Virus record (IMG/VR): IMGVR_UViG_3300023184_000033
Location: 99,825-163,824 of that record
Reading direction: 5' to 3' (one strand)
DNA: 64,000 nucleotides
From: a virus
In this document: piece after piece, positions 36,656-63,444 of the stretch
Layout: each line of letters opens with the position of its first letter
Position numbering within the stretch: position 1 is the first letter of the stretch
Program-made: the position numbers and the translations under genes
The notes under the pieces: generated by a model
Seen by the model: the letters and a program-made list of their open reading frames with translations, nothing else
What the model was told of the DNA's origin: nothing
Databases searched by the model: none

Positions 36656-36826
36656 TCAACTCGATTTTTTGGCTGATTTCTTAGCTTCTGCTTTCTTAGC
36701 TACAGGCTTAGCACTTTCTTTCTTAACTGTTGCTGCTGGTGCAGCCGGTTTTGCTGGTGCTGAAGATTGTGCGAAAGAAACAGTTGCGAATGATAACATT
36801 ACTAGTGCGATAATTGATTTCATATT
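36656..36826 (-). CDS. Small exported Ala/Lys/Pro-rich peptide (acid-shock-protein-like composition)
   Basis: Signal peptide MKSIIALVMLSFATVSFA; AAAGGA SD; APAKPAAP..KK tail. Confidence 0.7.
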   Translation of the reverse strand, partial: NMKSIIALVMLSFATVSFAQSSAPAKPAAPAATVKKESAKPVAKKAEAKKSAKKSS

Positions 36827-36898
36827 GATTCCTTTAAAAAATTTAAAACTGCAAGTTGATTCTGTTGCTAAGTTCAACTTGCAAAACTCCGATGAGGA

Positions 36899-36931
36899 TT
36901 ACGCCGCCATCAAGAAACGTGAGTCGTTTGC
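36899..36931 (-). other. tmRNA tag reading frame (A)ANDSRFLMAA
   Basis: gca aac gac tca cgt ttc ttg atg gcg gcg taa, after an A-rich resume context. Confidence 0.9.
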
Positions 36932-37017
36932 TTTTACTTTATTTTCTTCTTTTTACATCGTTGCTGATGTGCTGTCCACTCATTTACTTGTTGCCCTGTC
37001 GAAACTATGCAGGCCCA

Positions 37018-37176
37018 TCATAAAGATTTAATTTCTGTGATGATACTGTAGATGTTTGAGTATGTATTAGTTATTTCCTCTAGCTGTTGTTCTGATATAG
37101 AATCATTTACTTCAAAATGAACTAAGTCTTTAGCTAGATTCTCCTGTAATAATTTCAAACTATCTTGTTCATCCAT
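37018..37176 (-). CDS. 52-aa acidic ORF inside the tmRNA intervening segment (missing from ORF track)
   Basis: MDEQDSLKLLQENLAKDLVHFEVNDSISEQQLEEITNTYSNIYSIITEIKSL*; AAAGG SD 5 nt upstream. Confidence 0.6.
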   Translation of the reverse strand: MDEQDSLKLLQENLAKDLVHFEVNDSISEQQLEEITNTYSNIYSIITEIKSL

Positions 37177-37270
37177 ATAAACCTTTATGGTGGACCTGGG
37201 GGGATTCGCACCCCCGTCCAGAACACTTTTCTCTTTGCTTCATACAGCAATATCACTTAATCATGTTATA

Positions 37271-37299
37271 ATTATATATCATTTAATGGCCATTGGCAA
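37271..37299 (-). promoter_or_regulatory. Sigma70 promoter of the tmRNA (TTGCCA-17-TATAAT)
   Basis: Directly upstream of the acceptor piece. Confidence 0.85.
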
Positions 37300-54713: not shown

Positions 54714-54989
54714 TCACATAGACCAATACGCTTCGCTAGAGGGGCTGCAATAACGTGGTGTATCGTAGCGTTCCTGATATTCGCCGCCACCCATCATATT
54801 GTTGCGGGTAACAAAAGTCTCAAAAATCTGAAAACGATAACCATCCTTGGTCTTATAGGTTGGATAAAGTGATGAGACCTCACGTTCCATCGATTCCATG
54901 TCCTTGCGGTCAAAGTCATACTTGCTAATCAGGCGTTCACCTGTTTTCTTTCGTTTATCGGCTTTGTATATTTCAATCGTAAACATCAT
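54714..54989 (-). CDS. Conserved hypothetical protein
   Basis: EIYK.D.R.K.GERL..K.D, ERYDTP.YCSPSSEAYWSM. Confidence 0.75.
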   Translation of the reverse strand: MMFTIEIYKADKRKKTGERLISKYDFDRKDMESMEREVSSLYPTYKTKDGYRFQIFETFVTRNNMMGGGEYQERYDTPRYCSPSSEAYWSM

Positions 54990-55174
54990 TCTTCAACTCC
55001 AAAATGTTTTCCCATTTCTTCAGCAGCGATATACCCATGCTCGCCGATACTATCAGAAATACACATACATTCCTGCACAATTAACTGGGCGAATTTTTCA
55101 ATCTGTCCGTCTTGGGCATCATAGTATGCTTGAAGCTCAGATTGTTTCAGCAATTTTTTAATTCGTTCGTTCAT
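54986..55174 (-). CDS. MNERI/HFGVEE paralogue 1
   Basis: MNERIKKL...EKFAQLIVQEC...HFGVEE. Confidence 0.85.
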   Translation of the reverse strand: MNERIKKLLKQSELQAYYDAQDGQIEKFAQLIVQECMCISDSIGEHGYIAAEEMGKHFGVEE

Positions 55175-55208
55175 CTTGTGTTCCTAGTGTGTTGCTGTCT
55201 ATGCTTGT

Positions 55209-55237
55209 ATTATAATAGGGTTCTTAGGCCCTGTCAA
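55209..55237 (-). promoter_or_regulatory. Consensus sigma70 promoter TTGACA-17-TATAAT
   Basis: Perfect consensus upstream of paralogue 1. Confidence 0.9.
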
Positions 55238-55692
55238 CCGTTCAATTTGGCACGTAGCAGGTCGCTTAGAGTGGGCTGATGCTCTCCTGGAACAACCACA
55301 CCCTCCACGAACAGGTCCACGCCTTCGCTGTAGTAGCCGTTGCTCTCGCCTAACCAACGCACATCCACATAGCCCTTGCGGGTAGCGAACTTGTAGAAGG
55401 TATAGGTATAGCTTTCATAATGCTCTTCGCCAAGGTCTGGCTCAGGTGTGGCTCCCCGAACTTCCTCAGCAACCAACAAAGGCTCACCAACCAAGTCCTG
55501 CAGGTCACCAACAATATCGTTGATGTCCACACACTCGCAACAATCCTGTGAGTGAGCAAACATGAACCGCTCACCTTGTGCGGTTTCGAAAGTCATTTCG
55601 CCGTCACCAACGGACCCAGTCACCTGCACAAAGGTCTTGCCCAGCATCTGTGCCATGCCCTTTTGTGTGTCTACTATGTTGTTGTAATCCAT
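55234..55692 (-). CDS. Conserved hypothetical phage protein (GC-richer than flanks)
   Basis: H.QDCCE.V.I.DI.GDL, TFYKFAT.KG.V.VRWLGESNGYYSE. Confidence 0.8.
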   Translation of the reverse strand: MDYNNIVDTQKGMAQMLGKTFVQVTGSVGDGEMTFETAQGERFMFAHSQDCCECVDINDIVGDLQDLVGEPLLVAEEVRGATPEPDLGEEHYESYTYTFYKFATRKGYVDVRWLGESNGYYSEGVDLFVEGVVVPGEHQPTLSDLLRAKLNG

Positions 55693-55701
55693 TTTGTTTC
55701 C

Positions 55702-55905
55702 TTATCGATTGTAAAATTCACAGTCAGCACCTTCAGGACCGACCTTCACTTCATCATACCAGACGAAATCATGACAGAAGTCATGCCTTGAATCTTCCAA
55801 CACTGCACAGCGAGCATTGGCCAACTCAACAGTGGGGTACACTCCGTAGATGATGCTCTCAGGAGCGCCACGGTCCTCGGCACGTACAATAAAAATAGAA
55901 GTCAT
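55702..55905 (-). CDS. Hypothetical protein
   Basis: SD before MTSIF at 55905; in-frame upstream ATG at 55941 (MNEQIKQ). Confidence 0.6.
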   Translation of the reverse strand: MTSIFIVRAEDRGAPESIIYGVYPTVELANARCAVLEDSRHDFCHDFVWYDEVKVGPEGADCEFYNR

Positions 55906-55943
55906 TTTCTTTCCTTTTGGTTGTTTAATTTGTTCGTTCATAA

Positions 55944-56510
55944 TTATTTGACCTCGATTACAACGGATTCAGAGAAACCGTATTTTTTCAATAGAAACTT
56001 TTGGCAGGATTCGATAGAATCACGTGCCGCTTCTTGTTTGTTATTCCACATTGCTACCCATTTGCTACGGTCAGCACGGAAGAAAATAGTACCATCAGCA
56101 AAAACCGAATCTTTGTTAGTAACCACTTTGGTTACCGCTTTAGTCACCAGCCCTGGCGTAGTTTCAAAACGCTTTGCGGCTTTGGTAACTGTTTTCTTTT
56201 CTACCTTTTTAACCTTGGCAATCTTCGGTGCTTTTGGTGCTTTTGGCTTCAAAACGGCATCGGCAACAATCATTTCCATTTCTTTATCTGGATTCAGTTT
56301 AGGACCAGTCAAAGGACCAACCCATGGAAAGAAACCAACAACCTCATAGGTAGAATGATTGTCTTTATTACGGAGAGCATCATTCATATCAGAACCACAG
56401 GAACCCCATTTATCGGTGTCCGCATTATAGTAACGATAATACTTGCCTTGAAGACCACGGTCAACCAAATAAAGTGCCGTTCTTGTAGGTGTTTCAGTAT
56501 TAAATTCCAC
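55944..56510 (-). CDS. Hypothetical protein with Lys-rich linker
   Basis: AAGGAG SD before the GTG at 56510; KPKAPKAPK tract. Confidence 0.65.
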   Translation of the reverse strand: MEFNTETPTRTALYLVDRGLQGKYYRYYNADTDKWGSCGSDMNDALRNKDNHSTYEVVGFFPWVGPLTGPKLNPDKEMEMIVADAVLKPKAPKAPKIAKVKKVEKKTVTKAAKRFETTPGLVTKAVTKVVTNKDSVFADGTIFFRADRSKWVAMWNNKQEAARDSIESCQKFLLKKYGFSESVVIEVK

Positions 56511-56835
56511 AGAATTCTCCTTGTTTACCGAATTGTTGAAAACCCATCGGCATGCAAACCGATGCAAAACCGTCATTATCTACGACCACATCACCAACAG
56601 AAACCGAGTGCATTGGCGCAATCCGTTCTATTTTAGATTCAGGACCGACATTGCCGACCGTAAAAACACCTTCTAAGTTTTCCGCTTCGATAACAGCAAC
56701 CTTAGAATATAAGGGTTTTGCCGCCATAACCGTTGCAACAGAGCAACCGAATTGAACATTCCGATAAACCTCTACGATAATTGCATCATCATATTGTACA
56801 TCGGTCAGATTTATTTGATAAATGCCGTATTTCAT
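56500..56835 (-). CDS. Hypothetical protein (YodL-like motif)
   Basis: IYQI, LE.VF..GN, MHSVSVGDVV. Confidence 0.65.
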   Translation of the reverse strand: MKYGIYQINLTDVQYDDAIIVEVYRNVQFGCSVATVMAAKPLYSKVAVIEAENLEGVFTVGNVGPESKIERIAPMHSVSVGDVVVDNDGFASVCMPMGFQQFGKQGEFCGI

Positions 56836-56996
56836 TTTTTATCCATTTCTTCATAATGTTTAAATACTTTAAGAATTTCAGGTGCCGCTTCAGCAGGCAA
56901 ACCTTCGTCAATCATTAGTTGAATGATATATTCATCGGATAGACCGACTTCTAATGCTTCGGTGATTAATGTATGCAATCGAGACATATAAGACAT
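56832..56996 (-). CDS. Hypothetical protein, 54 aa (missing from track)
   Basis: MSYMSRLH...; ATGA coupling to the next gene. Confidence 0.55.
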   Translation of the reverse strand: MSYMSRLHTLITEALEVGLSDEYIIQLMIDEGLPAEAAPEILKVFKHYEEMDKK

Positions 56997-57001
56997 TTAA
57001 T

Positions 57002-57214
57002 TCAAACCTCATTTAATTGAACATCGAAACAATGCTGTTTCATTTGATGGTCATAGTACCGAACCCGAGTACCGAAACCAGAATTTTTACCTTTTAGATG
57101 CAAAACATAATAGAGTGCATCATTCATCAGGGTAAAATCACCAACCCTACGATTTTTAATCGCCGTCTTGGTTGTATAGAAACTAACACCATTCACTATT
57201 GCACGAATTTTCAT
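57002..57214 (-). CDS. Hypothetical protein
   Basis: GGAGG SD; ATGA overlap. Confidence 0.65.
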   Translation of the reverse strand: MKIRAIVNGVSFYTTKTAIKNRRVGDFTLMNDALYYVLHLKGKNSGFGTRVRYYDHQMKQHCFDVQLNEV

Positions 57215-57429
57215 ATAACCTCCATCACGCCAAAATCAGCAATAACCTGATTTTCATTTACAATTACCTGCTCACGAATAGAACCAAAAACGAATAATGG
57301 CTCATCCAAATCAATATGGTAAGATACAGAACCACCATATCTTACCCGAGATTCAGTAACCTTACCAGTTACCAAATATTCGGAAAGATATAATGCTTTC
57401 ACCGTAGAACCATCTTTATTCCAACCCAT
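57211..57429 (-). CDS. Hypothetical protein (SH3-like)
   Basis: G.V.ESRV.YGG.V.Y.I.LD.P. Confidence 0.65.
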   Translation of the reverse strand: MGWNKDGSTVKALYLSEYLVTGKVTESRVRYGGSVSYHIDLDEPLFVFGSIREQVIVNENQVIADFGVMEVI

Positions 57430-57447
57430 AATTAAACCTTTTCACTT

Positions 57448-57660
57448 TCATGATATAATGGTGTTTATAATATTATTTGCATAATAAGACCAAACATATT
57501 CCCGAACGGCAGTATCCGTTGCTTCAGAGAAAACTTCAACCTTTGAGAGATTAACCAATTGCTGATAAATCTCTAACCAAGCAGAACCGTCTTCAATAGC
57601 ACAATCGACAATATGCTTAACCGCAGCATCACCTGCATTTGAAAACATACCAAAATACAT
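57448..57660 (-). CDS. Hypothetical protein
   Basis: FGMFS..GD.AV, EATDTAVRE; own promoter. Confidence 0.7.
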   Translation of the reverse strand: MYFGMFSNAGDAAVKHIVDCAIEDGSAWLEIYQQLVNLSKVEVFSEATDTAVREYVWSYYANNIINTIIS

Positions 57661-57683
57661 AGAACCTCACTAATAAAACAACC

Positions 57684-57711
57684 ATTATACAGGTACCGGA
57701 GGATAAATCAA
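57684..57711 (-). promoter_or_regulatory. Sigma70-type promoter TTGATT-16-TATAAT
   Basis: CCTGTATAAT context. Confidence 0.65.
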
Positions 57712-57769
57712 CCAATACTTGACCAAAATACTCTGATATTACCATAGTGGCAATATCGGAAAATTCTAG

Positions 57770-57787
57770 TGTTGTACAGAAACAACA
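57770..57787. promoter_or_regulatory. Palindromic site TGTTG-N8-CAACA (copy 3)
   Basis: TGTTGTACAGAAACAACA in an intergenic region. Confidence 0.55.
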
Positions 57788-57882
57788 GTGTCGCAGGATG
57801 TGTCGCAATTATGGTGCCCAAAGCAGGTCTTAGTTTGCATCCGTGATTCTCCGTGGTTTCCAGAACGGTTCCAAAAGGTTTT

Positions 57883-58077
57883 TTAAGCGCTCAGAGACAT
57901 TTTCGCAACCTCTTCGAATTCTCCAATGACCACCTGATAAGCTTCGGTAAGTATCGGAGAAAGCAAACCCAGTTTATCCTGTATATCGAGAACCTCTATA
58001 GTCTCCATAAAGGATTCAGTCTGGCATTTCAGTCCGAATTCAGAGACCAACCTCATAGCGTCACCTGTAGTCATCAT
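57883..58077 (-). CDS. Hypothetical protein
   Basis: GAGG SD. Confidence 0.6.
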   Translation of the reverse strand: MMTTGDAMRLVSEFGLKCQTESFMETIEVLDIQDKLGLLSPILTEAYQVVIGEFEEVAKMSLSA

Positions 58078-58078
58078 A

Positions 58079-58333
58079 TTAATATTCCTCTAGAGCAGCA
58101 ATACGCTCTTTATAATCTTCTACCTCTTCAGCATCCGTTTCGGGGTCTAACCGATCCAAATCATACTGAAGATTTTCAATTTCAGAATTTACCACTTCCA
58201 AGCAAACCTCACGATAAGCAATTGGATCAACAGCTTTCAGAATCTCAGAGCGAGAGTAGGTAAGATTACCAATTTTCACTTCACCTTCAGAATCCAACAG
58301 CTCATCCACCATTTCAGTTACAAAATCTCTCAT
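58079..58333 (-). CDS. Acidic hypothetical protein
   Basis: S.ILK.VDPIAYR; TAATG coupling. Confidence 0.65.
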   Translation of the reverse strand: MRDFVTEMVDELLDSEGEVKIGNLTYSRSEILKAVDPIAYREVCLEVVNSEIENLQYDLDRLDPETDAEEVEDYKERIAALEEY

Positions 58334-58458
58334 TACGGTCTCCATACAAAAAGGTCTAATATTAATACAATCACAGCAGCAGTATATACTACGGTGAATG
58401 CTGCTCGCTCACAATTTTCCCAATTTAAATTTGGAAAGTACTTTTCCAAAATGCTCAT
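58333..58458 (-). CDS. 41-aa membrane peptide (missing from track)
   Basis: AAGGAG SD; TM helix ending LDLFVWRP. Confidence 0.65.
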   Translation of the reverse strand: MSILEKYFPNLNWENCERAAFTVVYTAAVIVLILDLFVWRP

Positions 58459-58522
58459 AGCTTCTCCTTTAAAATAACCATTATATCAGAAACCTAACAA
58501 CCTTGCAGGTCGCTGATATAAT

Positions 58523-58543
58523 GGTTGACCGTTTTGGTCAACC
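58523..58543. other. Inverted repeat GGTTGACC-N5-GGTCAACC (terminator or operator)
   Basis: Perfect 8-bp arms just after the 58554 stop; same core at 59092-59108. Confidence 0.55.
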
Positions 58544-58553
58544 TTCGAATCGA

Positions 58554-58955
58554 TTAAGCGAATTCGATAACGCTTTGGACACGCTTCGCACGGAGAGCAG
58601 CTGCAATGGTGTTAGCTTCTGCACCTTCGCTGATTGTCACAGCGCCTGGTTTACGGTTCGCTTTAATCGCTTTAGCGCCGACCTTGCCGACAGCTTTAGC
58701 AATCGCCTTAGCCTGAAGCGCTTCAAGGCGAGCAGTAGCCTTAGCAATACGCTCTGCCATTTTAGCTTCAGCAGCTGCAGCTTTATCAGCACGTGCTGCC
58801 TGCTTCTCGAATTTGGCAAAGGACTTGGACTCACGGCGGAATTTAACCTCATCGCTGATAGAAGCACGGAGAGCTTTAACTGCTTCACGTTTTTGGTTGA
58901 GGGTCAGGCCGTTAACTGAAGCGCAAGGGAACACATGGTTGGTGCTGGTAGTCAT
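58554..58955 (-). CDS. Ala/Lys-rich basic protein (first gene after the control region)
   Basis: KAAAAEAK..KAIAKAVGKVGAKAIKANRKP; own promoter. Confidence 0.7.
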   Translation of the reverse strand: MTTSTNHVFPCASVNGLTLNQKREAVKALRASISDEVKFRRESKSFAKFEKQAARADKAAAAEAKMAERIAKATARLEALQAKAIAKAVGKVGAKAIKANRKPGAVTISEGAEANTIAAALRAKRVQSVIEFA

Positions 58956-59015
58956 AAAAATCCTTTATAGTGACTGGTTGAAAATTTGCATCGCTTTTCT
59001 CGACTGCATGGATGC

Positions 59016-59043
59016 ATTATAGACGAACCGGCAGGTTAAGCAA
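59016..59043 (-). promoter_or_regulatory. Sigma70-type promoter TTGCTT-16-TATAAT
   Basis: Upstream of the 58955 start. Confidence 0.7.
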
Positions 59044-59062
59044 GCGTTATTTACCACGCCTG

Positions 59063-59075
59063 TAAGCTGTTGATT
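59063..59075 (-). promoter_or_regulatory. IHF consensus site 1
   Basis: AATCAACAGCTTA matches WATCAANNNNTTR. Confidence 0.65.
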
Positions 59076-59182
59076 CCATTGAGCTTAATACTTGACAGGA
59101 TTGGTCAAGTATTCACAGGAACTGGCAGGAATGACAGTTTTTTGGTATTTTCGCAGGTTTTCGCAGCGCCTGGGGAGGGCTG

Positions 59183-59195
59183 GTAAGCTGTTGAT
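59183..59195 (-). promoter_or_regulatory. IHF consensus site 2
   Basis: Identical 13-mer exactly 120 bp from site 1. Confidence 0.65.
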
Positions 59196-59399
59196 TTATA
59201 TAGCTATTTTGCTGGTCAACTGGGGCTGGCTGGGGCTGCTCTCGGGGACACTATATGGGGCACGGTGCCGGATGGGGGAGGTGCGTTATAGAAAAAGTTA
59301 CCACCTGGTCAAACTCTTTATTTCAAATTTTTATTTTCTGGAGCCAGCTCAGAGGAATCTAAATTTTTTTTTCAGGAGGCCTCAGAGGTCTCCAGTATT

Positions 59400-59489
59400 T
59401 CATTCGTCTTTGTCATTACGCATATCCCATAATACTATGCCTATCACGGATATGATGATTATACAGAAAATAATGTCATTGATTGTCAT
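59400..59489 (-). CDS. 29-aa membrane peptide (missing from track)
   Basis: MTINDIIFCIIIISVIGIVLWDMRNDKDE; ATGA coupling. Confidence 0.5.
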   Translation of the reverse strand: MTINDIIFCIIIISVIGIVLWDMRNDKDE

Positions 59490-59581
59490 TCTGTCATTGT
59501 CCTTGAATCTTCATTTGATCGATATGCATATACGATGGCTGCTACTATATAACCTGCAAAGAATCCTAAAATAAAACTCAT
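59486..59581 (-). CDS. 31-aa membrane peptide (missing from track)
   Basis: MSFILGFFAGYIVAAIVYAY...; start overlaps the stop of paralogue 2. Confidence 0.55.
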   Translation of the reverse strand: MSFILGFFAGYIVAAIVYAYRSNEDSRTMTE

Positions 59582-59799
59582 TCTTCAACTCCAAAACGGT
59601 CTTGAATTCTTTGTTCAATCTCATAGCATCTATCCAGCGCCCAGTCATCGGGTTCAGTAATGTTTCCCACATTACGTGCAATATCCATACATTCCCGAAC
59701 AATCAACTCGGCGAACTTTTCTTTACTAAAAATCAATTCACCGTCCAGTTCAACCAGACTTTGTGCGGCAAACCGTTCTAACATTGGTATCTTACTCAT
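59578..59799 (-). CDS. MNERI/HFGVEE paralogue 2 (replaced N-terminus)
   Basis: EKFAELIVRECM...RFGVEE. Confidence 0.85.
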   Translation of the reverse strand: MSKIPMLERFAAQSLVELDGELIFSKEKFAELIVRECMDIARNVGNITEPDDWALDRCYEIEQRIQDRFGVEE

Positions 59800-60107
59800 A
59801 CATTATTCCTTCCTATGCGGCTGTATCCTAACTTGGACTTAATCTCTTTACGGTCTCGGTTCTTCTCTGGTTTCCATGCTCTTGGATCCACAGTCTCTCC
59901 CGTTAATTCATAACGAAAATCTGGATCGTAAACCATATATCCTAACTTGTTCCATTTGATTACTCCTGCATCAAATAAGAAGATACAACCACGACACATA
60001 CAGAAACTGGCACCGTTGTCGCTCATCACATTGCCATTTACTGTGCCAACATATTTGACCACATTACCCTGGTGCATTTCTTTCAGTGCTTCGAAGTAAT
60101 CAATCAT
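59796..60107 (-). CDS. Hypothetical protein
   Basis: DYFEALK....G..V; coupled ORF. Confidence 0.65.
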   Translation of the reverse strand: MIDYFEALKEMHQGNVVKYVGTVNGNVMSDNGASFCMCRGCIFLFDAGVIKWNKLGYMVYDPDFRYELTGETVDPRAWKPEKNRDRKEIKSKLGYSRIGRNNV

Positions 60108-60250
60108 TCTTGTTCCATCTTACTAAAGTCAGGATCCCGGCTGTACCCGATATTAAAGTTACCAAGTTTCCACCAAATATAGCGTCCACCATAATCACAG
60201 GTTTGTACTGTAAATCCAAGAAACTTAAAATGTGTAATCCATTCAATCAT
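60104..60250 (-). CDS. 48-aa hypothetical protein (missing from track)
   Basis: MIEWITHFKFLGF...; GGAG SD inside the 3' end of paralogue 3. Confidence 0.55.
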   Translation of the reverse strand: MIEWITHFKFLGFTVQTCDYGGRYIWWKLGNFNIGYSRDPDFSKMEQE

Positions 60251-60485
60251 TCTTCACTCCCAACAATTCTTTGATTAGGGTCTTTTTATCTTCCGTGGAC
60301 ATACCAACTCCGAAATGTTGTTCAATCAAATACCACGCTTCGTGTGTGGCATCCATTCCATCAGCACCACGAGCAACGGTGATACATTCCCTAACAATCA
60401 ACTCAGCGAACCTATGAGCAATAATAGCATAATCAAAATCCTTATAGCCAGCCTCTGTGGCAAGTTGTTTAATTCTTTCATTCAT
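60243..60485 (-). CDS. MNERI/HFGVEE paralogue 3 (C-terminally extended)
   Basis: MNERIKQLA...RFAELIVREC...HFGVG-MSTEDKKTLIKELLGVKND. Confidence 0.85.
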   Translation of the reverse strand: MNERIKQLATEAGYKDFDYAIIAHRFAELIVRECITVARGADGMDATHEAWYLIEQHFGVGMSTEDKKTLIKELLGVKND

Positions 60486-60577
60486 TTGTCTAAACCTTGA
60501 ACAAAAAGACTGGCTACTATTGCCATTAGGAACAAACATCCAAGACCAATGGCATACACTATTAAAAATTCAATCAT
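60482..60577 (-). CDS. 31-aa membrane peptide (missing from track)
   Basis: MIEFLIVYAIGLGCLFLMAIVASLFVQGLDK; ATGA overlaps at both ends. Confidence 0.6.
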   Translation of the reverse strand: MIEFLIVYAIGLGCLFLMAIVASLFVQGLDK

Positions 60578-60789
60578 TCTTCAACTCCAAAATGTTGTTC
60601 AATCCTGTTACCAATAATCATACCTGGTCCAGACATTTTAGGAGCATCGTATTCGTAGGCAATGTCAATACATTCCCGAACAATTAACTGGGCGAACTTT
60701 TCTTCACGATCCCAATGAAAAATATCGCTGATTTTGAATGCTGGAATACCCCAAGCCTCTGTAATAAGTTCTTTAATTCGTTCGTTCAT
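60574..60789 (-). CDS. MNERI/HFGVEE paralogue 4
   Basis: MNERIKEL...EKFAQLIVREC...HFGVEE. Confidence 0.88.
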   Translation of the reverse strand: MNERIKELITEAWGIPAFKISDIFHWDREEKFAQLIVRECIDIAYEYDAPKMSGPGMIIGNRIEQHFGVEE

Positions 60790-61064
60790 GACTTCCCCAT
60801 ATCGTGTTTTAATCTACTATGAAAATTATCTTCTCCGTCGTCTCCTGATACCAACCAATCGATACGTTGTACGTAGATGTGAGCCAGTCTAAGCGTTGTT
60901 AATGCATTTTTGAACTCATCTATCGTTTCTTCACTGTACCCATAACCTTTTTTATCACCATACTCATTCAGTTCTTCTGAATCGTTATCGATGATTATTT
61001 GTTCTATCTCATCGGCGATGTTACCGATTTCCCATTGCTTATATTGGAAGTGTCCGCCTGACAT
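60786..61064 (-). CDS. Conserved hypothetical phage protein
   Basis: MSGGHF.Y.Q, A.IY.QRIDWLVSGDDGE..F. Confidence 0.8.
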   Translation of the reverse strand: MSGGHFQYKQWEIGNIADEIEQIIIDNDSEELNEYGDKKGYGYSEETIDEFKNALTTLRLAHIYVQRIDWLVSGDDGEDNFHSRLKHDMGKS

Positions 61065-61330
61065 TATTCTACTCCAAAGTGTTCTTTCAATTCTTCACCC
61101 AAGTCTTGTAGCAACCTTGCGTGGATATCATAGATATCTTCCCACTTGGCCGAATGTCCAGGAACCAAATCATAGGTTGTAATCTTGTCAATACATTCCT
61201 GCACAATCAACTCGGCGAACTTAGACATAACAGTTGAGTCCAAGGTATTACCTGGATGATACATATACACAGCATCACCCCACACAGCAATACCAGCCTG
61301 TTCAGCAAGTTCCAGAATTCGTTCGTTCAT
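61064..61330 (-). CDS. MNERI/HFGVEE paralogue 5
   Basis: MNERILELAEQAG...KFAELIVQEC...HFGVE. Confidence 0.88.
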   Translation of the reverse strand: MNERILELAEQAGIAVWGDAVYMYHPGNTLDSTVMSKFAELIVQECIDKITTYDLVPGHSAKWEDIYDIHARLLQDLGEELKEHFGVE

Positions 61331-61515
61331 AACATCTGTTTGTCAGCAAGCATGGATTCGAATGTAGCCCACAGTTGTTTGAATTTGAAATCATAAACGC
61401 AGGCTAGGCTGGTCATATCCGCTACATTGGCACCTTGAGATTCCATCATCGGAATCTCATCAGTGATTTTCCAGCACTCCAATATCTGTTGTTCTAAATC
61501 AAATCTATTACTCAT
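61327..61515 (-). CDS. Hypothetical protein
   Basis: RFDLEQQIL.CW, Y..KF..LW.TFE. Confidence 0.7.
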   Translation of the reverse strand: MSNRFDLEQQILECWKITDEIPMMESQGANVADMTSLACVYDFKFKQLWATFESMLADKQML

Positions 61516-61729
61516 TTTTAATTCCTAAAGTTTCGGGGTTATGATCCAACCTATCACTCTGTGGTTCAGAATAAAATGCGGCATCTTCATCGGTGATTGT
61601 AACACACAGGTCCGAATGTGTCAAATCGTAATCTGTGAATTGGTGATTCTCGCCATACACTCGAAACGCTACATCATAGCCTGTACGTAGTAAATGTCCA
61701 GTAACACCATTGGCTGGTTTAATTGTCAT
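61508..61729 (-). CDS. Hypothetical protein
   Basis: FRVY....F.DYDL.HSDL.VTI.D.DA.FY, LDH.P.TLG. Confidence 0.7.
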   Translation of the reverse strand: MTIKPANGVTGHLLRTGYDVAFRVYGENHQFTDYDLTHSDLCVTITDEDAAFYSEPQSDRLDHNPETLGIKNE

Positions 61730-61914
61730 TCTTCTACTCCGAAATGTTTTTTAATCTTGTCAACATAGGTGCTTGCTGGTTCACGATGGTCTACTGCACC
61801 AGCAACAATATTAACACATTCCCGAACAATCAACTCGGCAAACTTTTGACGGTCCAACCAACCTGTTTTAGGATCACTTGCCTTCAATGCCAATAGTGTA
61901 ATTCGTTCGTTCAT
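61726..61914 (-). CDS. MNERI/HFGVEE paralogue 6
   Basis: MNERITLLA...KFAELIVREC...HFGVEE. Confidence 0.88.
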   Translation of the reverse strand: MNERITLLALKASDPKTGWLDRQKFAELIVRECVNIVAGAVDHREPASTYVDKIKKHFGVEE

Positions 61915-62075
61915 TTTGCATAGACCAGACTTTTGGCCTCTGAGTTAGTTACGGGGCATTCAAAGTACATTATATCCCGACCTTGAATATCTTCCTCTAT
62001 ATTTAAAAATTTAACTTTTTCCGTGTCATGTTCTTCGGAACACTCTGTACAAACAACAATAAAATACCTACTCAT
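61911..62075 (-). CDS. 54-aa Cys-containing protein (missing from track)
   Basis: VCTECSEEH...NIEEDIQGRD..YF.CP; ATGA overlaps at both ends. Confidence 0.7.
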   Translation of the reverse strand: MSRYFIVVCTECSEEHDTEKVKFLNIEEDIQGRDIMYFECPVTNSEAKSLVYAK

Positions 62076-62284
62076 TCTTCAACTCCGAAATGTGTTTTAA
62101 TCTTATTAGCAATAATAGCACCCATATCATCTTCTCTATGACTAGATCCTAAAGCAAGGTCCATACATTCGTAGGCAATCAACTCGGCAAACTTTGCCAA
62201 GGGAACATTATCCCAATCTTCAATAGGAAAGTCAGCATCATCTAAGCCAGCCTGTCTAACCAGTTGTCTAATTCGTTCGTTCAT
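62072..62284 (-). CDS. MNERI/HFGVEE paralogue 7
   Basis: MNERIRQLV.QAG...KFAELIAYEC...HFGVEE. Confidence 0.88.
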   Translation of the reverse strand: MNERIRQLVRQAGLDDADFPIEDWDNVPLAKFAELIAYECMDLALGSSHREDDMGAIIANKIKTHFGVEE

Positions 62285-62659: not shown

Positions 62660-62868
62660 TTTTCACCAAAATATTTAAGAATTAGATCCATTGCAGCAAT
62701 CAGTTTGATATTACTTGGCACATCATCTGGATGAACATATGCAGTACCTTCTTTGAAATGCTTTAGTTCTTTCTTTAGAATCTCTCTATGATCCTTCAGA
62801 AGACAGATTGTAATCTTATCAGCTGCTTCATAATCCAACTCTAATTTTAAACCTTTAAGTTTTCCCAT
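62656..62868 (-). CDS. Hypothetical protein
   Basis: GGAG SD before MGKLKG; HPDD. Confidence 0.65.
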   Translation of the reverse strand: MGKLKGLKLELDYEAADKITICLLKDHREILKKELKHFKEGTAYVHPDDVPSNIKLIAAMDLILKYFGEK

Positions 62869-63220
62869 TGCGTTTCTCCACGAATTTCTGATAATCTGCT
62901 TCGTTACCAATTTGGTAACCTTTGTCTGACATATGCTCGGAAGCCTTTAAAAGGCCAAATGTATCTGTGATTTTCTTAGTAAGTTGTTGAGCCATACCTT
63001 TGGCCATACTTTGGTCGTAACTTGTGTATACTACTTTATTATAGTTGCGGATATCACCAATAATGTCCAGTACGTCATTGAGAGCTTGTTCTACCATGAG
63101 GTCAGCATACTTCTGTACTGCTTCTTTGTCGTAAGAGTCCATGTCATCAAAAGAACCTTGGGCAATCAAACCAGATTCATACATCTTATCCTGGATTTGA
63201 CGTTTTCTCCAACCACTCAT
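62855..63220 (-). CDS. Hypothetical protein, possible distant MNERI-family member
   Basis: Start MSGWRKRQI; QKYADLMV and KITDTFGL echo the family's middle and terminal blocks. Confidence 0.6.
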   Translation of the reverse strand: MSGWRKRQIQDKMYESGLIAQGSFDDMDSYDKEAVQKYADLMVEQALNDVLDIIGDIRNYNKVVYTSYDQSMAKGMAQQLTKKITDTFGLLKASEHMSDKGYQIGNEADYQKFVEKRNGKT

Positions 63221-63444
63221 TTCTTCTTCCTCTTGGGTTTCACTTTGTCTTCTAGTTTTATCGCTGCCTGTAATGCTGCCTGTTTCGTTTGTTCTTCTTT
63301 GACCCACTCTAAGTGTTCTTTAATAAGACGGTCATAGGTTTCTTCGTCAACTTCTTGGTCGTTTAAACGATACTTCCAACCACCAGTGTCTAGTATAGCA
63401 GACACGGCTACTGGTTCTTTTACTGTTTTCTTTTTTACGACCAT
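63217..63444 (-). CDS. Hypothetical protein
   Basis: Basic termini; coupled ORF. Confidence 0.6.
   Translation of the reverse strand: MVVKKKTVKEPVAVSAILDTGGWKYRLNDQEVDEETYDRLIKEHLEWVKEEQTKQAALQAAIKLEDKVKPKRKKK

Follow-up and report, generated by a model that had tools for sequence, protein, structure and literature searches.

Independently assorting half-gene cassettes between DNA-conserved blocks in a family of small proteins from uncultured phages

The window analysed here is the last 64 kb (positions 99,825 to 163,824) of a single-contig virus record of 163,824 bp, IMG/VR IMGVR_UViG_3300023184_000033. It carries seven paralogous genes for small proteins whose two halves are discrete cassettes, assorting independently of each other and of flanking genes, so that diversity resides in the size of the cassette library and in its reassortment. 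DNA similarity between contigs starts and stops at three short blocks. Sequence comparison makes it highly probable both that the genes follow a single plan—block 1 (MNERI), an N-half cassette, block 2 (KFAELIVREC), a C-half cassette, and block 3 (HFGVEE plus stop)—and that half-genes are exchanged at these blocks.

An earlier note on this DNA, made from its letters alone, had listed seven copies, six of them within 2.7 kb and one without block 1, and all of this held. The seven open reading frames (ORFs) are on the minus strand and encode 62-98 amino acids: paralogue 1 at 54986-55174 (62 aa), paralogue 2 at 59578-59799 (73 aa), paralogue 3 at 60243-60485 (80 aa from the family Met at 60485, the ORF being open to 60539), paralogue 4 at 60574-60789 (71 aa; the copy used for structure modelling), paralogue 5 at 61064-61330 (88 aa, with the longest variable segments of the seven and the tail variant GGAGTAGAATAATG), paralogue 6 at 61726-61914 (62 aa), and paralogue 7 at 62072-62284 (70 aa). 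Paralogues 2 to 7 are the six packed copies (59578-62284); paralogue 2 begins MSKIPMLERF in place of MNERI, and paralogue 3 has an additional C-terminal add-on cassette that closes with a second junction, GGAGTGAAGAATGA. A hidden Markov model (HMM) built from the seven copies and run against six-frame ORFs of the whole 163,824-bp genome recovered exactly these seven (E 1e-22 to 1e-30). The record is an estimated 98% complete (CheckV), and a RecA/UvsX-type gene, an RNA ligase, and AAA ATPases were verified in it.

Independent assortment of the two halves

For comparison, loci on other viral contigs were fetched (designated by L-numbers, such as L001 and L012). This sample is the best 80 of at least 419 IMG/VR stretches that match the family profile; it holds 317 members, usually grouped in arrays (as many as 12 members in 20 kb), with two or more members in 67 of the 80 loci. 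Members were cut at HMM columns into block 1, N-half, block 2, C-half, and block 3, and pair statistics were taken over 280 members, located in the window and on 77 viral contigs, three near-duplicate contigs having been dropped. Across the 38,485 between-contig pairs, identity in the N-half was uncorrelated with identity in the C-half (r = -0.006). Only 2 of the 100 pairs with the same N-half type also had a C-half type in common, against a random expectation of 0.3, and 2 of the 112 pairs with the same C-half type had the N-half type in common; in numerous pairs one half was 100% identical and the other unrelated. The same pattern emerged when paralogue 4 was compared with 5.8 billion proteins: among the 119 best matches none shared both halves, 11 shared the N-half only, and 105 the C-half only; in one match an N-half of the paralogue 2 type is combined with a C-half of the paralogue 4 type.

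The library is large: the 295 members typed comprise 216 types of N-half and 214 of C-half. Within shared cassette types the ratio of nonsynonymous to synonymous change (dN/dS) was 0.062 and 0.115, and the proportion of synonymous differences (pS) was 0.66 and 0.50, so that synonymous sites are near saturation. Because low dN/dS goes with near-saturated synonymous sites, the cassettes are old protein modules that have been under selection: discrete, widely shared, and kept by purifying selection rather than mutationally hypervariable. The description of the variable parts as hypervariable loops in the earlier note was therefore not borne out, since each part includes helix and is a discrete shared cassette with dN/dS of 0.06-0.12. 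Its observation that the variable segments are unrelated in sequence and length was sound; those of the seven copies are mutually unalignable, and their lengths by HMM alignment, 10-23 and 17-34 aa, are near the 10-22 and 20-37 aa given earlier.

These data bear on three rival explanations. Were the seven copies ordinary divergent paralogues with fast-evolving loops, related by descent without exchange, it would be natural that pairwise comparison within the window found no cassette common to any two of them; on the other hand, the halves would not be uncorrelated, one half would not be fully identical beside an unrelated other, and the cassettes would not be under strong purifying selection, which makes this explanation extremely improbable. 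Targeted mutagenesis of loops by a diversity-generating retroelement (DGR) or a similar system would suit variable segments flanked by constant ones. Nevertheless we give it almost no credence: a reverse transcriptase (PF00078) had no match in the whole 163.8-kb genome, whereas control genomes matched, as the earlier note had anticipated in setting a classical DGR aside; the types are discrete, of different lengths, and differ within a type mostly at synonymous sites rather than by scattered substitutions. Nor did the cassettes show scattered variation at adenine sites of the DGR type, although no explicit search for a template repeat was made. Finally, the mosaics might be assembly artefacts in which different phages were joined at repeated blocks, all comparison sequences being assemblies and the blocks being repeats. 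This is very improbable. Cassettes shared between different samples differ by 6-27% in DNA, mostly synonymously, and so represent diverged lineages and not one mis-joined molecule; the blocks, at 15-33 nt and ~22-25% different between copies, are short and variable for an assembler to collapse; and sharing of halves recurs in thousands of independent records.

The points at which DNA similarity is lost coincide with the blocks. For N-half matches (n=71), the median distance was 0 nt both between the start of the match and the ATG and between its end and the end of block 2. For C-half matches (n=75), the corresponding medians, measured from the start of block 2 and from the stop codon, were likewise 0 nt, and only 4% ran >30 nt further. 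The earlier note had proposed diversification by recombination between conserved anchors and had pointed to the middle block for breakpoints, and both proposals agree well with these results.

Individual paralogues illustrate the mosaic. In paralogue 1, the C-half (54986-55099) is 93% identical to L001 and the N-half (55060-55198) 76-79% identical to L002-L005, the two ranges overlapping at block 2. In paralogue 6, the C-half (61726-61847) is 78% identical to L022 and the N-half (61815-61917) 78-80% identical to L042 and L001, again with overlap at block 2. Paralogue 3 matches L012 and L039 at 60243-60327 (91-93%) and L062 at 60305-60410 (88%), and paralogue 5 matches L006 at 61193-61330 (86%). 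Paralogue 2, which lacks block 1, can be read from its sequence as a natural control for exchange at the blocks. Its 59578-59730 segment is 96% identical to L002, and a single unbroken match of 413 bp to L012 (59699-60111, 91% identity) takes in its N-half and runs across the gene boundary into the upstream gene; the N-half remains linked to that upstream 103-aa gene in L012, L039, and L066.

Conserved blocks and coupled genes

The earlier note had held the blocks to be conserved at DNA level, and counts against shuffled sequence bear this out. Block 3 (TTYGGAGTWGAAGAATGA, ≤2 mismatches) had 6 matches in the window versus 0.03 expected, block 2 had 7 versus 0.06, and block 1 had 8 versus 0.33, 6 of these 8 being inside family genes. 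Block 2, the putative mid-gene crossover anchor, is exemplified by 61827-61845 (minus strand; AAGTTYGCCGAGTTGATTG, coding for KFAELIV), and the other copies are at 55078-55096, 59700-59718, 60395-60413, 60681-60699, 61204-61222, and 62176-62194, all on the minus strand. One further block-1 match opens an unrelated 79-aa ORF at 55702-55941 (minus strand), which starts ATGAACGAACAAAT (MNEQIK; 1 mismatch); it may be a block-1 remnant fused to a foreign body, or chance, 0.33 such matches being expected per window.

Conservation of the blocks extends below the protein level and includes non-preferred codons. Across the family the same-codon fraction was 0.85 for Arg4 (CGA), 0.71 for Ala31 (GCC), 0.71 for Leu33 (TTG), 0.885 for Gly65 (GGA), and 0.81 for Val66 (GTT), compared with 0.2-0.3 predicted from loop codon usage and 0.38-0.63 for Leu, Ala, and Gly within shared, closely related cassettes. 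Block 2 is dominated by AAG and GAG, whereas AAA and GAA are preferred elsewhere.

Within-genome concerted evolution or gene conversion was considered and rejected as the source of this identity, the blocks being no more similar inside contigs than between them (DNA difference 0.24 vs 0.24, 0.235 vs 0.228, and 0.21 vs 0.22, respectively).

The last 15 nt of the gene, GGAGTTGAAGAATGA, are 97-100% invariant at each position among the 136 members that end in FGVEE, and contain GGAG 7 nt upstream of an ATG that overlaps the stop. Block 3 is thus, on its sequence, a putative ribosome-binding site, the stop, and the start of the following gene. At 62072-62089 (minus strand), for example, TTYGGAGTTGAAGAATGA has GGAG, a 7-nt spacer, and an ATG overlapping the TGA stop; the junctions of other copies, also on the minus strand, are at 54986-55003, 59578-59595, 60574-60591, 61061-61078, and 61726-61743. 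A downstream ORF of ≥40 aa starts from the stop-overlapping ATG (at -1) in 198 of 297 members. Further family members make up 76 of these ORFs (66 by exact start and 10 via the HMM), and the remaining 122 are unrelated small genes (median 66 aa) that fall into 109 clusters, with no recurrent partner among them.

A possible, if doubtful, alternative to selection for exchange is that the blocks are kept in DNA mainly for expression and folding, crossovers at blocks being incidental and not selected. On that view, initiation would take place in an unstructured block 1, the ribosome-binding site and start of the following gene would lie in block 3, and block 2 would act as a signal in the RNA. Such a division of roles fits all of the mosaic data, and block 3 plainly has the GGAG, 7-nt spacer, and ATGA that it calls for. 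Consistent with it also, blocks 1 and 3 were the least paired parts of the mRNA in minimum-free-energy folds (54% and 50% unpaired), and no within-genome homogenization was seen. However, the non-preferred codons that are fixed in block 2 (AAG, GCC, GAG, and TTG) go unexplained by it; folds of 280 member mRNAs, a weak test, revealed no consistent block-to-block pairing; and the near-complete linkage equilibrium of the halves becomes a coincidence.

Another alternative, which we think improbable, is that a site-specific enzyme, a nuclease or recombinase recognizing the blocks, drives the exchange, as in conversion stimulated by a homing endonuclease or in a shufflon. Each block measures only 15-33 nt and is fixed at synonymous positions too, as a protein recognition site would be, and homing endonucleases are common in T4-type phages. 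No such enzyme was seen beside the arrays, though no search aimed at one was made; the absence of a recurrent partner among the 122 coupled neighbours is against it, as is the occurrence of arrays on very different contigs, from 4 to 374 kb.

Within the window, coupled genes, all on the minus strand, form a chain in the order paralogue 4, a 31-aa mini-ORF, paralogue 3, a 48-aa gene, a 103-aa gene, and paralogue 2. ATGA overlaps join every step from paralogue 4 through the 103-aa gene, leaving no intergenic gap, and the overlap between the 103-aa gene and paralogue 2 is 4 nt, as judged from coordinates. The mini-ORF (60482-60577; MIEFLIVYAIGLG...) is strongly hydrophobic and is ATGA-coupled to paralogue 4 upstream and paralogue 3 downstream. 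It fills the exact gap between those paralogues and is below the usual length for ORF lists. The 48-aa and 103-aa cargo genes (59796-60250) lie between paralogues 3 and 2. Elsewhere, the ATG of an unrelated 91-aa gene (54714-54989) overlaps the stop of paralogue 1; an unrelated Cys-rich 54-aa gene (61911-62075) is coupled to paralogue 7, and an unrelated 73-aa gene (61508-61729) to paralogue 6; and an unrelated 92-aa gene (60786-61064) starts inside the TAATG junction of paralogue 5.

The nearest relatives of these small genes between paralogues are each on different contigs. The 48-aa protein is 96% identical to one in L077, and the 103-aa protein (gene at 59796-60107) is 97% identical to one in L012 (L012:10465-10877), which suggests, from sequence, that very different phages have recently exchanged individual small genes. 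L012, a viral contig of 352 kb, has little else in common with the 164-kb phage. Some non-family cargo genes elsewhere end in ...YGVEE or ...FGVKE (L065:10885-11103 and L060:10526-10717), so that the tail junction also occurs on unrelated genes, in contigs other than the window.

Several further features of the window were recorded. A perfect sigma-70 consensus, TTGACA-17-TATAAT (55209-55237, minus strand; a consensus match only), ends 35 nt upstream of the solitary paralogue 1, and a second, near-perfect promoter-like site with an extended -10 TG is inside the array at 61596-61624; promoter-like sites were not enriched in the region (34 vs 27 expected). A permuted transfer-messenger RNA was called by ARAGORN at 36808-37280 (minus strand), with the tag ANDSRFLMAA.

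Family distribution and predicted fold

The family is very large and unnamed, and consists of small acidic helical proteins of uncultured freshwater phages. A profile search of 1.84 billion representative proteins gave 7,965 clusters (50% identity) at E≤1e-3 and 984 at E≤1e-10. By comparison, a scan of 185,579 prokaryotic species genomes gave only 14 matches, all on contigs of freshwater metagenome-assembled genomes; these are probably mis-binned phage and offer no clue to the host. Among 50,697 records of cultured phages, tblastn with paralogue 4 and with the best profile match found nothing even at E≤1, and megablast with the region found a single trivial 90-bp match elsewhere.

Neither Pfam nor PHROGs v4 gave anything consistent for the seven copies or for 133 relatives. 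In Pfam no family rose above noise at E≤1 for the seven, and for the relatives there was one weak match at E≤0.01 (FAT domain, E 0.007). No occurrence of the motif strings was found in the literature searched.

An ORF at 62855-63307 (minus strand; 121-150 aa) gave a marginal eighth match to the family HMM (E 0.013). It has KYADLMVEQ and ITDTFGL in place of the family KFAELIVREC and HFGV, lacks the DNA-level blocks, and aligns by tblastn over ~40 aa to sites where other loci carry family members; it may, on its sequence, be a distant and longer relative.

The predicted structure of paralogue 4 (AlphaFold2, 133-row alignment; mean predicted local distance difference test score, pLDDT, 91.7) has three helices, at residues 3-13, 26-48, and 55-67. 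The helical scaffold proposed in the earlier note is thus upheld as a prediction; the picture of two loops on display is not, since the variable parts include helix and are expected at opposite ends of the model. As inferred from helix order, both termini would meet at block 2, in the middle of the long helix, and the variable regions would occupy opposite ends of the long central helix without forming a single combined surface. The proteins are acidic (median isoelectric point 4.86, median net charge -6).

A homodimer with the conserved blocks as its interface is favored by the modelling, though only slightly. The homodimer test, run on an alignment made for this analysis, scored 0.58 versus 0.01 for the best control. 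Of 30 proteins solved as pairs of one chain, 20 attained that mark, as did 1 of 23 solved as single chains; given the alignment used, these counts apply only roughly. Homodimer runs agreed in ≥97% of contacts, with partner pLDDT ≥76. The predicted interface residues (4-5, 8-9, 31-37, 39-40, 62-63, and 66-67) are those of the conserved blocks, and i-to-i contacts at 32, 36, 40, and 44 in the model suggest parallel central helices with adjacent Cys40 residues.

Searches by structure and profile gave no lead to function. Foldseek against PDB yielded no lead (best E 2.8), a wide VIA-align search reached a best Z of 5.1 with generic helices, the strongest match in a sequence profile search of PDB was to a short helix in Pumilio (E 0.012), and ESM Atlas, searched by shape and by features, returned unnamed viral clusters only. 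The proteins may belong to some already known small helical fold.

Mechanism, function, and meaning

Module swapping at conserved motifs is already known in tail-fibre adhesins, as is swapping of whole genes in the hyperplastic regions of T4-type phages. In polymorphic toxin loci (CdiA-CT, Rhs), likewise, a conserved demarcation motif precedes a swappable C-terminal domain that is exchanged by recombination. The family resembles these toxins in that a conserved motif marks the exchange point for unrelated C-terminal modules, and differs in that the proteins are tiny and both halves are swappable, with no large delivery domain, toxin domain, or immunity gene; at 62-98 aa, and with downstream genes in 109 unrelated clusters, it does not look like a toxin system.

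The hyperplastic regions of T4-type phages undergo modular shuffling of cassettes bounded by promoter-early stem-loops (PeSLs; Arbiol et al. 2010, PMC2839356; Comeau et al. 2014, PMC4122927). There, too, short conserved DNA elements are exchange points between otherwise unrelated small genes. PeSLs, however, are intergenic promoter/terminator motifs that swap whole ORFs, whereas the blocks described here are coding and swap half-genes in frame, have no consistent hairpin, and occur in genes that abut via ATGA overlaps. In the gp38 tail-fibre adhesins of T2/T6-type phages, glycine-rich motifs (GRMs) separate hypervariable segments (Trojet et al. 2011, PMC3157838). In both gp38 and the present family, short conserved core-forming motifs separate independently interchangeable variable segments of a phage protein. 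Nevertheless there is no sequence relation and no Pfam match between them, and the motifs here are helical and not glycine-rich. The present proteins are also all-helical, non-virion products of an early-type operon, with 7-12 paralogues per genome, two cassettes in near-complete linkage equilibrium, and a last motif that doubles as the ribosome-binding site and start of the next gene. PeSL shuffling and gp38 come nearest among known systems; the present case departs from them in its unrelated sequence, in anchors that are coding blocks, in the in-frame exchange of half-genes, and in a 3' anchor that couples translation.

The simplest mechanism would be general homologous recombination between co-infecting phages, for which such phages encode a RecA/UvsX-type recombinase (the RecA-family gene of this genome is at G000:C1:33561-34283). 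The blocks would be the sole homology remaining between otherwise unalignable alleles, and crossovers would fall in the blocks because no other homology is left. Half-genes, whole genes, and small neighbouring genes would be swapped in this way with frame and translational coupling kept. In the protein, the three blocks would converge as fold core and symmetric dimer interface, so that any N-half could be joined to any C-half and, possibly, any paralogue could pair with any other, leaving the two variable ends as working surfaces.

As to function, our best guess, offered tentatively, is that the proteins are early-expressed binders or decoys of host or defence components. A bolder proposal, which we regard as unlikely, is that of a combinatorial repertoire, in which a universal dimer interface would allow 28 dimers from seven genes, each with two independently swappable binding ends, and in which block identity would keep the cassette pool exchangeable across very different phages.

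Several considerations weigh against this account. The dimer is only predicted, and the same conserved residues would be buried in the core of a monomer too. Synonymous conservation of the blocks is not explained by within-genome gene conversion, and may stem from direct selection on RNA or expression. Shared cassettes from different samples are 73-94% identical in DNA, so that most exchanges are old and no rate can be derived from cassette divergence. Every related sequence is a metagenome assembly, and loci were sampled by similarity to the query. Lastly, searches of families, folds, and literature gave no lead to function, and the account as a whole is computational.

The system is unusual in that the exchanged unit is half of a ~210-bp gene, in that thousands of environmental sequences show its two halves in essentially complete linkage equilibrium, and in that three short blocks appear to have a triple role: they would form the protein core and the (predicted) dimer interface, serve as sites of crossover, and couple translation to whatever gene follows. 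Among unnamed families of phage proteins it is one of the larger, and its absence from cultured phages marks a blind spot of present annotation. It offers a natural system for measuring the minimal homology needed for productive recombination in phage populations, and may be a reservoir of small binders. If the combinatorial repertoire were real, phages would have, by way of recombination, something comparable to an immune repertoire, directed against targets in host defence or takeover.

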